From Candidatus Rariloculaceae bacterium (GTDB lineage Bacteria > Pseudomonadota > Gammaproteobacteria > Steroidobacterales > Rariloculaceae): 64,000 bases of DNA. A program made the translations under genes and the position numbers. Each line of letters begins with the position of its first letter. Within the stretch, counting starts at the first letter, position 1. Shown here piece after piece: positions 7,373 to 57,255 of this stretch. The DNA lies in the NCBI GenBank assembly GCA_965205045.1, contig OZ242031.1:2268044-2332043 (forward strand). Direction: 5' to 3'. A model generated the notes under the pieces. That model was given only the letters and a program-made list of their open reading frames with translations. It was not told where the DNA came from and made no database searches.

Positions 7373-7535
7373 AGCAGCAATCGAACAGATCCAAGTCGGA
7401 GACCTCGCCCAGGTTGGTCGAGGCGGCGCCAAATCCTGGTGCACATGGCTGTAGAAGCACCAACCCCAAGGTCGCCCGACACACTCACCATGAGTCAGCC
7501 GGCGAGGCGCCGCAGTACCCGTTGGTCCGACATGC

Positions 7536-47944: not shown

Positions 47945-48798
47945 GGGCGTGTTAACACTAGCAGGCAAAAACGTGGTATCCTTCGTCGCGTTGTCCAGGA
48001 CGCGGAAACCGGAGGAAAATCAGGGATATGGAACTCACCGAAGCCCAATTCGAACGGATCGGGCCGCTGCTGCCGGTGCAGCGCGGAAACGTGAGCCTGC
48101 CGAACATCCAGGTGCTCAACGCGATCCTGTACGTGGCCGAGCACGGCTGCAAGTGGCGCGGGCTGCCCGAAAGGTTCGGCAATTGGCACACCGTCTACAC
48201 GCGGATGAACCGCTGGTCGAAGAACGGCGTTCTGGATCGCGTGTTCGAGCACCTGCAACGGGAGCGGCTCGTGCGCGTCAAGGTGGAGGCGGCGGGGCTG
48301 GACAGCACCGGCGTCAAGGTGCATCCGGACGGCACGGGGGCGGAAAAAAAAACGGCCCCCAATCCATCGGCAAGTCCCGTGGGGGCTGGACCACCAAGAT
48401 TCATATGGTTGCCGCGGATGACCGGACCGCCCTCGCGTTCTCGCTCTCTCCAGGCCAGGCGCACGACGCGCCCGAAGGGCGCAAGTTGCTGAGAGGCATG
48501 GAGAAACCGTCGAACAGCCCGGCGCTGGTGATGGACCGCGCGTATGAGGACGACGCCACCCGCCAACTGGTTCTGGACCTGGGATTCGTGCCGGTCGTGC
48601 CGCCGAAGAGCAACCGCGTCGACCCTTGGGAGTACGATCGGGAGATGTACAAGCGGCGCAATGAGGTCGAGCGGCTGTTCCGGCGCCTGAAGGGGTTCCG
48701 GCGCATCTTCTCGCGCTTCGAGAAACTCGATGTCGTATTCCTCGGCTTCGTCGTCTTCGTGCTCATCGTCGACGCGTTGCTGTAGTGTTAACAGGCCC
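47945..48798 (+). mobile_element. IS5-family insertion sequence (IS427-group-like), 854 bp, apparently intact
   Basis: Terminal IRs gggcgtgttaacact / rc gggcctgttaacact. Flanking TA (or CTA) direct repeat at 47943-47944 and 48799-48800. Two overlapping transposase frames. Confidence 0.85.
48028..48785 (+). CDS. IS5-family transposase (orfA/orfB joined by a probable programmed -1 frameshift at an A9 run, 48344-48352)
   Basis: orfA MELTEAQFERIGPLLP...HGCKWRGLPERFGNWHTVYTRMNRWSKNGV. orfB ...GGWTTKIHMVAADD...VMDRAYEDD...YKRRNEVERLFRRLKGFRRIFSRFEK, giving DDE residues in the usual IS5 context. Confidence 0.85.
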
Positions 48799-52851: not shown

Positions 52852-54867
52852 TCATTCGGGGTTCTCCGGGCCGGGGTTCTCGGGCGCGACGCGCAGCAGC
52901 CAATCGCCGTCTTCTTCTCCGGTGGGCACGACGCAGGCCATCAGCCCCGCCGCGCGCTCGGCGGACAGCGTTTTTTCGCTGGAGGGTTCGCCGGCGGGTC
53001 CGGCGGGGGTCGCGCCGCCGGCGGGTTCGCCGCCGGGTTCGGGGTGGCTTGCGTGCCTGGGGAACGCCCCGCCCGCGCCGCGGCAGGAGGCGTAGGCGGG
53101 GGCGTCCTTCCAGTTCTCGTCCGCGTCCCACAGGCACAGGTCGAAGTCCCGCCCGTTGTCGAGCCGGTAGGCCAGGTGCGTGCTCTCGCCGAGGGCGTCC
53201 AGTTCCCCCTGATGGGGAACGAAGCAGTACGGCGAATGGATGGCGCGCGCGCGCCGCCCGACGATCGGCGTGGCGCTCGCCCCGGTGTCTGGCGGATCGA
53301 TGCCGCCGGGGTCCGTGCCGCCGCCGGGTTCGCCGGCGTCATCGCCGGGTTCGCGGGCCGTGGAGTCCGCGATGGTCACCACCACCCAATGCCGGGCGTG
53401 CGCCCTCACCTCCCGCGGAAGCGATTCCAGCGCCATCTCCACCGTGAAGGTCTCGTCGTCGGCGTCCCCGTCGTGCGCCGTCGCGACCTCGGCCGTGCCG
53501 GAGGCGGACCCGGCCGGGATCCGGATGGAGGCGAGCGCGCCGAAGTCGCCGGGCTCCGCCGTGACCGCGAACAGCCCCACCGGGATCGTAACGTCCGCCG
53601 CCAGCGCCGCGGTCAGCGTCACCCTCACGGTCACCGCGGACCCCTCGGCCACCGGGTTCGGGGATGCCGAGATCGAGACCGTGGGCGCGGCCGGGTCGTC
53701 GCCGTCGTCGGCGTCGCCGTCGGCGATGGTCACCGTCACCGAGGCGGGCGTGCCCGCCGACACCGAGGCGGGCAGCGAACCCAGCGCCACCGTGAAGGTC
53801 TCGTCCTCGTCGTCGCCGTCGTGCGCCGTCGCGACCGTGCCCGCGCCGGAGGCGGACCCGGCCGGGATCCGGATGGAGGCGAGCGCGCCGTAGTCGCCGG
53901 GCTCCGCCGTGCCCGCGGTCAGCGTCACCGGGATCGACACGTCGGCCGCCAGCGCCGCGGACAGCGTCGCGGTCACCGTCACCGGGGAGCCCTCCGCCAC
54001 CGTGGCCGGGGAGGCCGACAGCCGGACCGCGGGGACGGCCGGGGGGCGGGGGTCGGAGATGGTCACCGTCGTCTCGCTGCCCGCGTTGGGCACTTCGTAG
54101 GGCGGGTCGTCGCCGGCGGGGGCGCTCAGCAGGAAGGACGCGGTCTCCTCGCCCTCCGCGGCCCCGTCTGCCACGGCGGACAGCGTGAAGGTGGCGCTGG
54201 AGGCGTTGGCCGGCAGCGTCAGTATCCTCAACCCGCGGCGCCCGCCCACCCCGGTCAGGGCATAGTCGTTTTCATCGGCCGATAAGGGGATTGTCGCCGA
54301 GACGTAGACGCTGCTGGCCTCGGCCAGTTGCGGGGAGATGTTGACCGTCAGCGTGACGCTCTCGCCCTCGTGGACGCTGTAGGCGGCCTTGGCGAAGCCG
54401 ATCCGCGGCCGCGCCGGGGGCGGGTCGGCGGGTGCGGCCCGGGGCGTGACGGTCGCCGCCGCGCTGAGGGCGCTGCAGTTCGCGCCGGAGGTCGAGCCGC
54501 CCGCGCACGCCCTGATCCGGGCCCAGTAGGTCGTCCCGTTGGAGATCGTGATGGCGGAGCCGCTGACGATCGTCTTGCTCGTGGCCGTGCCGGGCCTCGC
54601 GAAGACCGCGGCCCATGCCCCGCCCTGGGGGGCGTACCGGATGACGTAGGTGCCGGCGCCCGGCGAGGCGTTCCACCTCGCGGTGAACTGCCCGTCGCCC
54701 GCGGCGAGCGTCAAGCCCGTCGGCGTGGGCGGCGCCTGGGCCCGCGCGGGGGAGGCGGGCAGGGCGATGGCGCCCAGCAGCGCCAGGGCGGCCGGAAGGA
54801 GCGCGGAACGGCGCGGCGGGGCGGTTGCGGCGCGGGCGCGGCGCCCCCGGCTGGCGGACCGGGCCAC
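52852..54867 (-). CDS. secreted FN3 + triple Calx-beta-like repeat protein
   Basis: Start placed at GTG 54867 (VARSASRGRRARAATAPPRRSALLPAALALLGAIALPASPARAQA signal peptide). FN3-like GLTLAAGDGQFTARWNASPGAGTYVIRY. Three repeats of the type VAEGS.VTVT..LSAALAADV.IPV...AGTAEPGDYGAL...IPAGSASG...TAHDGD.DDETFTV. Confidence 0.75.
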   Translation of the reverse strand: MARSASRGRRARAATAPPRRSALLPAALALLGAIALPASPARAQAPPTPTGLTLAAGDGQFTARWNASPGAGTYVIRYAPQGGAWAAVFARPGTATSKTIVSGSAITISNGTTYWARIRACAGGSTSGANCSALSAAATVTPRAAPADPPPARPRIGFAKAAYSVHEGESVTLTVNISPQLAEASSVYVSATIPLSADENDYALTGVGGRRGLRILTLPANASSATFTLSAVADGAAEGEETASFLLSAPAGDDPPYEVPNAGSETTVTISDPRPPAVPAVRLSASPATVAEGSPVTVTATLSAALAADVSIPVTLTAGTAEPGDYGALASIRIPAGSASGAGTVATAHDGDDEDETFTVALGSLPASVSAGTPASVTVTIADGDADDGDDPAAPTVSISASPNPVAEGSAVTVRVTLTAALAADVTIPVGLFAVTAEPGDFGALASIRIPAGSASGTAEVATAHDGDADDETFTVEMALESLPREVRAHARHWVVVTIADSTAREPGDDAGEPGGGTDPGGIDPPDTGASATPIVGRRARAIHSPYCFVPHQGELDALGESTHLAYRLDNGRDFDLCLWDADENWKDAPAYASCRGAGGAFPRHASHPEPGGEPAGGATPAGPAGEPSSEKTLSAERAAGLMACVVPTGEEDGDWLLRVAPENPGPENPE

Positions 54868-54880
54868 GGGGTCAGGCCCC

Positions 54881-54985
54881 GGCTCGGCTCGGCTCGGCTC
54901 GGCTCGGCTCGGCTCGGCTCGGCTCGGCTCGGCTCGGCTCGGCTCGGCTCGGCTCGGCTCGGCTCGGCTCGGCTCGGCTCGGCTC
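54881..54985. repeat. pentanucleotide microsatellite (GGCTC)21
   Basis: 21 uninterrupted GGCTC units. On the minus strand they translate as (AEPSR)n in the TTG-initiated extension of the surface-protein ORF. The tract starts 14 bp upstream of the likely GTG start. Confidence 0.97.
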
Positions 54986-55374
54986 GGCAATTATAACCGA
55001 ATTCCAAGCCGGGATTGTCACGGACTCATTGACATTCATGCTCGATCCCCCCGCCTCACGACATCCCTTTCCGCTCATTGTGGATGCCCGTATATTCACC
55101 GCGCGGCGCGGCCTTGTCAACCGCCCGCCAGGCCGCCCGCCAGGCCATAACCAATCGTTTCATCTGCCTCGCAGAATTTGCCGCAGTTCCTCGACGGTAT
55201 CGGACGGAAGTCCGGTTCCGCGTGCCGTGGCGCCCCAAGTTTCGCGGGCGGCACAAGCGACGGCGAAGGTTCGCATATGTCCGAGGTCGCGGGGCGAGAA
55301 TCCCATGATGTCCGGGAGCTTCTTGAAGATCGTGAGACGGTCGGTCGATGGTATTGAAGCCCCAGCCCCGGTAA

Positions 55375-55837
55375 CTCGGATTGAGGGTGCGCCGCAACGG
55401 GCGCAAGACGTGGGTCATGCACCGGCGCTGCAACGGCTCCGTCATCAAGCGGACGCTCGGCAAGCTGGACGCGCTGACGGTCGAGGATGCGCGGCACGCG
55501 GCGCGGTCTCGCCGGACCAACTGCCCCTGGGTGTTCGCTTCACCCTGCGGCGAGCCTATAAGGTGGACAAGGCATGGAACGCGATTCGCAAGGGGGCGGG
55601 GCTGACGAAGCTCCGCATTCACGATCTGAGGCATTCGCAGGTGTCGACCGCTGTGCGGGCGGCGCTGCTTGGGGCGGACGATTTGGCGAAGCTCTGTGCG
55701 GTCTTGCGCCAGCACGAAGCGGAGAATCCGGTTTGCGTCGCAGCGGTGCGCCTGCTCGGGCATCGACGCGCCTCCACAACAAAGCGGCACGTCCAGATCG
55801 ACGACGCTACGCTGACAGATCGACGACGCTACGCTGA
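55375..55837 (+). pseudogene. tyrosine integrase, heavily decayed (deletions and frameshifts)
   Basis: Arm-binding-type N-terminus LRVRRNGRKTWVMHRRCNGSVIKRTLGKLDALTVEDARHAA. It jumps to WVFASPCGEPI, then in another frame WNAIRKGAGLTKLRIHDLRHS and LLGHRRASTTKRH (catalytic H-x-x-R, and His where the Tyr context is expected). Confidence 0.7.
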
Positions 55838-55963
55838 GCCAAGCCGCTGAGCGGGTGGCGGTAGAGATTCAGCGGAAGCTATGTCATATTGGCGGCCAGC
55901 GGTGACTGCAGCACAATTTGCACTGACCCATTGGCAACGGCCCCACAAAATAGATGCGACGAT

Positions 55964-56848
55964 ATGGCAAAGGTAATTGGATTCATAAGCGAAAAGGGGG
56001 GAACAGGCAAGACTACGGCCTGCTACCACCTTGCTGTTGCGCTCCAACGGGACCACGCCAAGCGCATACTGGTAGTTGATACGGACTATCAAAGGGGCGG
56101 GATTACTGGTCGGTTTTTTCCCGAGCTAATAGAGCCATTCGGCGCTGGCGAAATATCCGGAACGACTTTGTTCCACAAATTCCAAGAACTTTACAGCGCT
56201 GGAGTTCGCTCTCCAGAAGTAGGAATCAAAAGATGGAGGGACAGTATTGATGTGATCGTTTCCGATCCCAGACTTTCTACTGTTACAGAGGACAAACTGC
56301 CCAGCACCCATAACATTCGAGAGAACAATAAATCGCTTTGGAAGCATCTACAGGTGATTGATTATGTGCTGGATGCTGTTAAGGAAAACTATGACTATAT
56401 TCTGATTGATAGTCATCCTGAAGTGTCTGATGCATTACGTTCGGTCATATATTCATCCGACTACTGTGTTTCGCCGGTAAAGTTTGATCGTCAATCGTCA
56501 ATTGGCGTCGCCACCGTAATTGGTGAAATCAACAATGTGAATGCAGACATGGAGCTTATTAAGAATAGCCTGGATGGTGACATACAATACTCAGATACAA
56601 TTTTTTCCGGTTCGATGGGAATGATGGCCCGCGAATATGGCGGAGATCTTAAGTGGTCGGAATATTTGGAGCGCAATCGACTAAGGCGGACAGGAAGCGT
56701 ATTTGATGTCTATATTACTGAAGGCGACGGCTTGCGGAAAGCGTTATTGGAAAAGTGTCCGGTGTATGATGTCGGCGGCAATAACGCCAGCAAGCAAGCG
56801 CAGCAGTTTCGCAGCTTGACTATCGAGTTTTTGGAGAAATGCCCATGA
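55964..56848 (+). CDS. ParA/MinD-family ATPase
   Basis: 294 aa from ATG 55964. Deviant Walker A ISEKGGTGKTT, then VVDTDYQ and LIDSHPE. Very low G+C. Confidence 0.85.
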   Translation: MAKVIGFISEKGGTGKTTACYHLAVALQRDHAKRILVVDTDYQRGGITGRFFPELIEPFGAGEISGTTLFHKFQELYSAGVRSPEVGIKRWRDSIDVIVSDPRLSTVTEDKLPSTHNIRENNKSLWKHLQVIDYVLDAVKENYDYILIDSHPEVSDALRSVIYSSDYCVSPVKFDRQSSIGVATVIGEINNVNADMELIKNSLDGDIQYSDTIFSGSMGMMAREYGGDLKWSEYLERNRLRRTGSVFDVYITEGDGLRKALLEKCPVYDVGGNNASKQAQQFRSLTIEFLEKCP

Positions 56849-57255
56849 AAGAAATCAACATTGAGAAGTTGATCGAATGGCTTGGACCCGATGGGACGAT
56901 CGCCGGATTGGAACGAAGCAATGTTACAGTTTCAAAGCTTTGCGGGATGGCTATTCGTAGCGGTTTTGCCGTGGATAAAGGAACTAGACGACGTGATATC
57001 ATCGTTGATCTCGTGAATAGAAACTTCATCAGGATCGACAAGACATCAAACGAATTGTTGACGATGAGCTATCATGAACTTTGTAACTACTTTAGAGAAA
57101 GGGAGGTTTCCAGAACTGAACTCTTGAAACTACTTTCACAGTTTGACATCCGTCCCGCTGCGAGCGACAAAGTCAACCTGATCGAGTTTGCGGCAAGAGA
57201 GATTAGCGGCGTTGGTATGTACCAAAGGGTAGCGAAGGGTGCGCGGCGCGCGTAA
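56845..57255 (+). CDS. small protein (136 aa) translationally coupled to the ParA-like gene, with two SAP/HeH-like helix pairs
   Basis: ATGA overlap with the ParA stop and GGAGAA 7 nt upstream. Two similar segments (..VSKLCGMAIRSGFAVDKGTRRRDIIVDLV.. and ..ELCNYFREREVSRTELLKLLSQF..). Confidence 0.65.
   Translation: MKEINIEKLIEWLGPDGTIAGLERSNVTVSKLCGMAIRSGFAVDKGTRRRDIIVDLVNRNFIRIDKTSNELLTMSYHELCNYFREREVSRTELLKLLSQFDIRPAASDKVNLIEFAAREISGVGMYQRVAKGARRA

Follow-up and report, generated by a model that had tools for sequence, protein, structure and literature searches.

A (GAGCC)21 tract as a candidate hypermutable repeat in the 5′ leader of a secreted Calx-beta-type gene from a probably sponge-associated gammaproteobacterium

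Pathogens adapted to a host, such as Neisseria, Haemophilus and Mycoplasma, characteristically switch their surface proteins by means of repeats. The opa genes of Neisseria, a family of about 11, carry a (CTCTT)n tract in the region coding for the signal peptide, and each gene of the vlhA family of Mycoplasma gallisepticum has a (GAA)n tract upstream and is expressed at one permissive repeat length. The uspA2 gene of Moraxella catarrhalis contains an (AGAT)n tract in its 5′ untranslated region (5′ UTR), which is needed for expression and also modulates it. The simple-sequence-repeat contingency locus is, in general, a known kind of switch, and the repeats of Neisseria have been reviewed (PMC5320596). 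In H. influenzae, the hmw1A and hmw2A genes carry (ATCTTTC)n in the 5′ UTR (PMC12721329, PMC8262952), and expression of hmw1A falls with repeat number, which depends on a hairpin and on RNase III (PMC12721329). Here, we describe a perfect pentanucleotide tract, (GAGCC)21, situated just upstream of a gene for a predicted secreted protein in a 64,000-nt stretch of contig OZ242031.1 from a Candidatus Rariloculaceae bacterium. This whole stretch is referred to as the window, and positions without a locus name are those of the window.

With a probability of roughly 0.5, we read the tract as a contingency locus, a repeat made hypermutable by strand slippage, located in the 5′ leader of a gene that encodes a secreted, adhesin-like protein of the Calx-beta type. 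This gene belongs to a multigene family, and its bearer is an uncultured gammaproteobacterium that probably lives in association with a sponge. In the proposed mechanism, transcription would start in or just ahead of the first repeat unit, and the tract would form most of the 5′ untranslated leader. Replication slippage would then gain or lose 5-nt units, and the altered leader length would change expression in a heritable but reversible manner, either graded or ON/OFF. Possible routes for such an effect are translation initiation, mRNA stability and premature termination, and the cells of a population would differ in which family members they display. The following features are needed for the argument.

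54881–54985, minus strand: perfect pentanucleotide tract (GAGCC)21, which reads (GGCTC)21 on the plus strand; found with Tandem Repeats Finder and a pattern scan.
54868–54880, minus strand: 13-nt spacer GGGGCCTGACCCC from the tract to the start codon; identical in all seven loci compared.
52852–54867, minus strand: main open reading frame (ORF) of 671 aa (protein P0001) with a GTG start at 54867–54865; from ORF translation.
54990–54995, minus strand: perfect −10-like box TATAAT, 4 nt upstream of the tract; invariant in the seven loci.
55016–55021, minus strand: −35-like element GTGACA (5 of 6 matches); invariant in the seven loci.
54872–55039, minus strand: possible leader ORF, composed of an ATG at 55039, 17 AT-rich codons (MNVNESVTIPAWNSVII), the tract and a TGA at 54872; ATG kept in the seven loci.
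55092–55120, minus strand: TTGACA-N17-GAATAT, a distal element resembling a promoter by consensus match only; the leader ATG follows about 75 nt downstream.
55121–55146, minus strand: 12-nt direct repeat GGCCTGGCGGGC (gene sense) in 2.2 copies, abutting the distal TTGACA; found with Tandem Repeats Finder.

An earlier sequence-only reading of this DNA had described 21 uninterrupted pentamers at 54881–54985, and Tandem Repeats Finder agrees with it. The program reported 54880–54988 with a period of 5, 21.8 copies, 100% matches and a score of 218, and this is the only long array of a short unit in the 64-kb window. A probe of three units gave 19 matches, all within the tract, compared with 0.04 expected from shuffled sequences. 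In the sense of the gene, the repeat has the form GCC(GAGCC)21 at 54985–54881, and the complete junction reads TTATAAT-TGCC-(GAGCC)21-GGGGCCTGACCCC-GTG. The tract thus begins 4 nt past the TATAAT box and ends 13 nt ahead of the GTG of this minus-strand gene, a gap that had previously been put at 14 bp. The spacer itself contains a G-run, which is a weak Shine-Dalgarno (SD) candidate, and the TGA at 54874–54872. At 105 nt, the tract is well beyond the size at which slippage turns frequent. Short-read assemblers struggle with repeats, and the tract or its length could in principle be an assembly or sequencing artefact. However, perfect tracts of differing lengths are embedded in the same module on independent contigs of a metagenome assembly of long-read style, and both flanks are single-copy and collinear, which makes an artefact extremely improbable.

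The GTG at 54867 opens a typical signal peptide, VARSASRGRRARAATAPPRRSALLPAALALLGAIALPASPARAQA, at 54867–54733, just as the sequence-only reading had proposed. In P0001, this signal peptide is followed by an FN3-like N-terminal domain, three beta-sandwiches of the Calx-beta/LapA type and a conserved Cys-containing C-terminal domain. The AlphaFold model contains three confident beta-sandwiches within residues 150–500, whose best named Foldseek matches are the Calx-beta domains of NCX1/CALX, and Pfam assigned LapA (E=1.6e-7) together with a sub-threshold match to Calx-beta. Of the earlier FN3/Calx-beta label, the Calx-beta part is therefore supported by structural comparison, while the FN3 part depends on a weak match of the N-terminal domain to PDB 3mpc (E=0.005) and on FN3 domain matches in paralogues of P0001. 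Judged by its signal peptide, its LapA/Calx-beta domains and its paralogous family, the predicted product would belong to the secreted, adhesin-like class involved in surface or host interaction.

A protein search returned about a dozen close relatives with 70–90% identity to P0001 and shuffled domain architectures, several of which are encoded on the same 6.0-Mb contig as the window protein. A protein-based locus search in genomes gave two distant matches only. At the DNA level, the window was compared with six related loci, all of which come from one ENA metagenome assembly (ERZ25068511, the source of L003). The alignment showed an upstream module common to all seven loci, which consists of the distal TTGACA-N17-GAATAT, a G-run, an ATG, 17 AT-rich codons including GTGACA and AATTCGGTTATAAT, the tract, GGGGCCTGACCCC and a start codon. 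A DNA pattern specific for this leader had no matches in species-representative genomes and none in JGI metagenomes.

Between these conserved flanks, the number of units (n) is 21 in the window, 23 in L003 and L204, 11 in L203, 26 in L004 and L205, and 43 in L005; L203 and L003 lie on the same contig. In addition, P0006, a paralogue in the window's own genome that is called from the upstream ATG, contains (AEPSR)3, corresponding to n = 10, and P0017 has a decayed tract. In line with the earlier suggestion that so long a tract would keep expanding and contracting, the unit numbers are not identical over these eight copies, which belong to paralogues or related strains, and range from 10 to 43 (10, 11, 21, 23, 23, 26, 26, 43). 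The tracts of the related loci (11–43 units) are perfect apart from that of L005, which runs (GAGCC)13 (GTGCC)4 (GAGCC)3 (GTGCC)8 (GAGCC)3 (GTGCC)5 and so on. Such alternating GTGCC blocks are a slippage signature, in which a variant unit is copied by replication slippage. The tract thus appears hypermutable, a view supported by comparison between loci and not within one population. That slippage would alter the leader in 5-nt steps is well supported by these sequences and by analogy with described loci.

The conserved positions around the tract suggest that it is placed at a transcription start site. A start about 7 nt past the invariant TATAAT would land in the first repeat unit, and the junction TATAAT(A/T)GCC(GAGCC)n is also present in L100, L104, L155 and L005. 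Between the end of the GTGACA element and the tract there are 27 nt, the spacer from GTGACA to TATAAT measures 20 nt, and the variable sites in the alignment of the seven loci fall between the invariant GTGACA and AATTCGGTTATAAT. Further upstream, the distal TTGACA and GTGAATAT are conserved in the seven loci. The adjacent GGCCTGGCGGGC repeat varies from 0 to 3 copies by paralogue, with three in L203 (2760–2800) and one in L005 (720–735), and could be a second variable element or a binding site for a regulator. A strict promoter and terminator scan of 54500–55600 returned no sites at the thresholds of the tool, and the promoter reading therefore rests on conservation and on parallels at other loci. 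It is these promoter-like motifs, together with parallel loci having canonical promoters, which suggest that the tract may be transcribed between the transcription start site and the start codon. The tract is positioned neither between a −35 and a −10 element nor upstream of a −35 element, as in the hif, porA and vlhA types, but downstream of TATAAT. An Rfam search of 54600–55400 yielded a sub-threshold match to HgcE only (E=0.25).

Other loci from one and the same sample provide such parallels with different repeat units. In L003 (ENA ERZ25068511, contig ctg59556), positions 7393–7515 read TTGACA-N18-GATAAT-(TCGGCCCA)10.5, followed by 12 nt and an ATG. This perfect octamer precedes the gene of a 771-aa cadherin-like/LapA-like protein, which lies 500 nt downstream of the paralogue of the window gene. 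In L326 (2360–2503), the order is TTGACA-N17-GAATCA-(AGCCGGA)15-ATG with a perfect heptamer, and the signal peptide starts at that ATG; the product has 1005 aa and contains ten Calx-beta/LapA repeats of 324 nt each. L325 (2236–2520), on a 2.26-Mb contig with 50.7x coverage, instead has a 37-nt poly-C tract (C6TC30) between an SD sequence plus ATG and the signal peptide of a 1167-aa protein. This protein possesses Calx-beta repeats, and by eye its C-terminus resembles that of an autotransporter. At the present poly-C length, the ATG is shifted out of frame by one base, reflecting a homopolymer that acts as a phase switch or, alternatively, an error of long-read sequencing in the homopolymer.

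To place the pentamer in a broader context, one genome per species was scanned for (GAGCC)8, which gave at least 117 stretches, and (GTGCC)8 was scanned likewise as a control. Perfect tracts of 8 or more units were found for each of the two in at least 117–120 stretches of species representatives, mostly of high GC content. As a general claim, the idea that GAGCC is unique among GC-rich pentamers was rejected, since (GTGCC)8 is equally frequent overall. The association with promoters differs between the two units among the matches listed, to which the counts in this paragraph refer. Of 102 (GAGCC)n loci, 24 have an exact TTGACA 25–36 nt upstream of the tract, and 6 of 104 have one on the other side, compared with 1/104 and 3/110 for the control. 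This spacing puts the tract at about the transcription start. The (GTGCC)8 matches, mostly from actinomycetes, lack both this promoter association and the share of sponge MAGs (metagenome-assembled genomes) found for GAGCC. Furthermore, n modulo 3 is flat over 118 tracts (42, 33 and 43), so that no frame preference was seen, and in L104, L182, L192 and L194 the ATG abuts the tract, whereby a frame effect is not possible. The proteins encoded after GAGCC tracts include Calx-beta (L194), LRR+FN3 (L136), LRR+Big_2 (L200) and FN3+Calx-beta (L196) types, and several of them are homologous to the window protein.

Three candidate start codons have to be considered for the window gene, namely the TTG at 54990, the GTG at 54867 and the ATG at 55039. 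The sequence-only reading had pointed to the TTG as an in-frame start that would add (AEPSR)7, and the corresponding ORF of 712 aa (52852–54990) does exist. As a start, however, the TTG was rejected: it directly follows a TAA, lies inside TTATAATTG and the TATAAT box, and is not conserved, being TAG in L005. Of the slipped-strand phase-variation switch proposed there, the hypermutable repeat 5′ of a secreted adhesin-like gene is thus retained, given the variation in n and the blocks of L005, and the TTG-initiated frame is not. At the position of the GTG, five loci have GTG, L004 has ATG and L205 (at about 2890–2900) has GCG, with an intact ORF of 618 aa. For P0007, P0011 and P0012, the only called start is an internal Met, which shortens the signal peptide, and these three and L205 may be silent copies or copies relying on the upstream ATG. 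That ATG at 55039 is preceded at a distance of 6 nt by a G-run (55052–55046), and both are kept in 7/7 loci. Its leader ORF joins the reading frame of the main ORF solely when n = 1 mod 3, which among the eight copies holds for P0006 alone. At n divisible by 3, the leader ORF terminates at the TGA in GGGGCCTGACCCC, 4 nt ahead of the start (window, L004). The leader has a GC content of 44% and a GC content at third codon positions (GC3) of 56%, compared with a GC3 of 94% in the gene, whose overall GC content is 76%. The tract is located upstream of the GTG/ATG start, yet the conserved G-run and ATG read through it. With the tract upstream of the likely start and downstream of the −10 box, ON/OFF switching by reading frame works only if the ATG at 55039 is the real start.

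Weighing the evidence for the GTG at 54867 against that for the ATG at 55039 places the variable leader first and a translational frame switch, similar to that of Neisseria opa, second. In such a switch, which we regard as unlikely, the gene would start at the ATG at 55039 and be transcribed from the distal TTGACA-N17-GAATAT, the tract would code for (AEPSR)n, and the gene would be ON only at n = 1 mod 3, so that the window copy with n = 21 would be OFF. Such a switch might also have three states: for n = 0 mod 3, translation of the leader ORF would end 4 nt ahead of the GTG and could be coupled to re-initiation, and for n = 2 mod 3, the leader ORF would run past the start in a different frame. 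Several observations suit the frame switch, and some of them at the same time weigh against a variable leader. Every locus retains the SD-like G-run, 6 nt upstream of an ATG whose ORF crosses the tract, together with the distal promoter-like element (7/7), and the TGA sits in an invariant spacer 4 nt before the start. In P0006 (n = 10), the frames match and the upstream ATG is the called start, and one in-frame copy of eight is what would be expected if most members were OFF. L205 keeps its 618-aa ORF intact despite the GCG in place of GTG, and P0007 and P0012 are called only from an internal Met. Finally, the distant, 40%-identical homologue L325 has the order SD-ATG-poly-C-signal peptide of a coding-type switch, with its 37-nt tract, a homologous n-region and signal peptide and no other start codon. 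On the other hand, the GC3 of the leader (56%) is far from that of the gene (94%), the leader contains the invariant TATAAT, and its variable sites fit a promoter spacer. Initiation at the ATG would also place the signal peptide 60–120 residues from the N-terminus, and the start position is GTG or ATG in 6/7 loci. In the other GAGCC families and at the 7-mer and 8-mer tracts, the gene starts after the tract, and an upstream start is not open or its frame is closed by stops. Taken together, these comparisons make a variable 5′ leader more likely and better supported than a frame switch.

Further points weigh against the variable leader, some of which agree with a neutral microsatellite. The loci compared are paralogues or come from related strains with different flanking genes and are not strict orthologues, and the proximal promoter is imperfect, with a spacer of 20 nt between GTGACA and TATAAT and an empty promoter scan. 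L003 and L204 both have n = 23, which implies that the tract does not change at every duplication. RNA folding for n = 0–44 gave a start-site accessibility that is independent of n (about 0.34 for n of 3 or more), and the tract has a minimum free energy of −44 kcal/mol compared with a shuffle mean of −47, i.e., it is no less structured than shuffled sequence. On this result, the idea of the tract as an "unstructured landing pad" was rejected, and folding leaves no mechanism for a length effect in hand. A neutral microsatellite would be a GC-rich, non-palindromic pentamer that expands by slippage in high-GC DNA, is tolerated in a non-coding gap and is copied among paralogues by duplication or gene conversion, without a regulatory role. 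Both the folding result without an n-dependent effect and the n = 23 shared by L003 and L204 are in line with this, as is the occurrence of GAGCC and GTGCC tracts of 8 or more units, each in at least 117–120 species-representative stretches, many of them in actinomycetes and without obvious gene context. Nevertheless, we consider neutrality rather improbable, because a place on the start-site side of promoter-like elements is far commoner for the tract than for the control unit or for the opposite strand, and genes for large secreted proteins of the FN3, Calx-beta or LRR type follow it in several phyla. In addition, related genes of one sample are preceded, at the same position, by four different repeat units, and the module is kept in seven loci with intact ORFs.

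Concerning the host of the tract, BioB of the window is 94% identical to BioB of the MAG jk18x25bins.5, its nearest relative, and the jk18x MAGs derive from Caribbean Ircinia sponges (PMC9531527). In this relative, (GAGCC)11 precedes the gene of a 2018-aa FN3 protein, with 6 nt between the tract and the ATG (L193). The sequence-only reading had considered such a switch unusual in a high-G+C genome of free-living type, a view that does not agree with an Ircinia symbiont MAG as the nearest relative or with tracts in at least 117–120 mostly high-GC stretches. About one third of the listed GAGCC matches are MAGs with sponge-microbiome-like names, belonging to Entotheonella, Palauibacter, Longimicrobiales, Acidobacteriota, Alpha- and Gammaproteobacteria and Nitrospirales. 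Names suggest a sponge origin for most of these MAGs, and this was verified for the jk18x set only. In sponge symbionts, FN3, cadherin, LRR and Calx-beta domains are enriched as "eukaryotic-like" classes (PMC9531527).

From these data, a broader but doubtful possibility arises, in which (GAGCC)n would be a shared 5′-leader module of sponge-microbiome bacteria from many phyla and stochastic switching a community-wide trait of sponge symbionts. In this module, the tract may begin at the transcription start site of strong promoters before genes for large FN3, Calx-beta, LRR and cadherin-like surface proteins. The phyla concerned are Gamma- and Alphaproteobacteria, Acidobacteriota, Gemmatimonadota, Entotheonella and Nitrospirales, and related genes have 1-, 7- and 8-nt repeats at the same spot. 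The module could have spread horizontally or arisen by convergence, possibly with a sequence-specific role of GAGCC RNA or DNA. If the tract of the window gene does control expression, sponge symbionts would generate surface diversity by the logic of pathogens, which bears on how symbionts persist in, or evade, a filter-feeding phagocytic host. For the "eukaryotic-like" classes, to which the Calx-beta/FN3 proteins concerned belong, a role in contact with the host is assumed. Full-text searches of the papers available did not find repeat-driven switching of surface proteins described in sponge symbionts. What appears to be new is the setting in a high-GC sponge-type symbiont, the multigene Calx-beta/FN3 family and the repeated occurrence of a single pentamer at the start sites of promoters in different phyla, none of which was found described in these searches.

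Some additional observations were made on the wider occurrence of the repeat. Across L086–L202, GAGCC tracts lie on the start-site side of TTGACA-type promoters in many phyla, often before genes for secreted FN3/Calx-beta/LRR proteins of 750–2200 aa. Gut Ruminococcaceae, Gemmiger and Collinsella (L114, L131, L162, L165, L172, L173, L177, L183, L198 and others) have the arrangement TTGACA-N17-TATGCT/AATACT-(GAGCC)8-15. In this gut family, the reverse complement of GGAGGGCTTGACAATG follows about 25–30 nt past the tract, whereby promoter-like elements face the tract from both sides. Many contigs of the MAG CBDHHR01, labelled Metamycoplasmataceae (L142, L231, L238, L245, L256 and L262–L264), contain long GAGCC and GTGCC tracts. 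Such tracts would hardly be expected in a low-GC lineage and point to mis-binning of the contigs.

In the window, the tract gene differs in composition from its surroundings (76% GC and GC3 of 94% compared with about 62% GC in the surrounding region). Its neighbours include an IS5-type transposase with a frameshift (47949–48785), an integrase remnant (about 55300–55850) and a low-GC ParA-like gene with a small ORF (55889–57255, 47% GC). The contrast in GC content and the mobile-element neighbours suggest a horizontal origin, or alternatively GC-biased gene conversion among paralogues. A tRNA scan of the window found none, and the gene is thus not at a tRNA-linked island despite the nearby integrase remnant and IS elements.

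Compared with the described systems, the locus combines features of several. Like vlhA, it belongs to a big surface-protein family in which each gene has its own 5′ repeat, likely non-coding here as well, the length of which in vlhA selects the expressed copies. However, the vlhA repeat is upstream of the promoter and acts on transcription, whereas the present tract is downstream of the −10 box. The locus shares with uspA2 a tandem repeat in the likely untranslated leader of an adhesin-type gene, but uspA2 has a tetranucleotide and is a single gene in an AT-rich genome. The likeness to opa lies in a pentanucleotide 5′ of each member of a multigene family of surface proteins, with an own unit number per copy. 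In opa, the tract codes for the hydrophobic core of the signal peptide and the frame sets ON or OFF, whereas here it precedes the likely start and, even if the upstream ATG were used, would code for residues ahead of the signal peptide and not within it. Similar to hmw1A, the closest of the described systems, the repeat is situated between a probable promoter and the likely start codon of a large secreted adhesin-type gene, of which more than one copy exists per genome. The two differ in that the present repeat is a GC-rich pentamer from an uncultured sponge-type symbiont, while that of hmw1A is AT-rich and from a human pathogen. A hairpin of the hmw1A type, in which repeats pair with a G-rich partner, was not predicted at the window tract, which lacks n-dependent structure. 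In hmw1A, the repeat is transcribed within the leader, slippage changes its unit number and expression is tuned as a result, which by analogy offers a precedent for reading the (GAGCC)21 tract as a variable 5′ leader.

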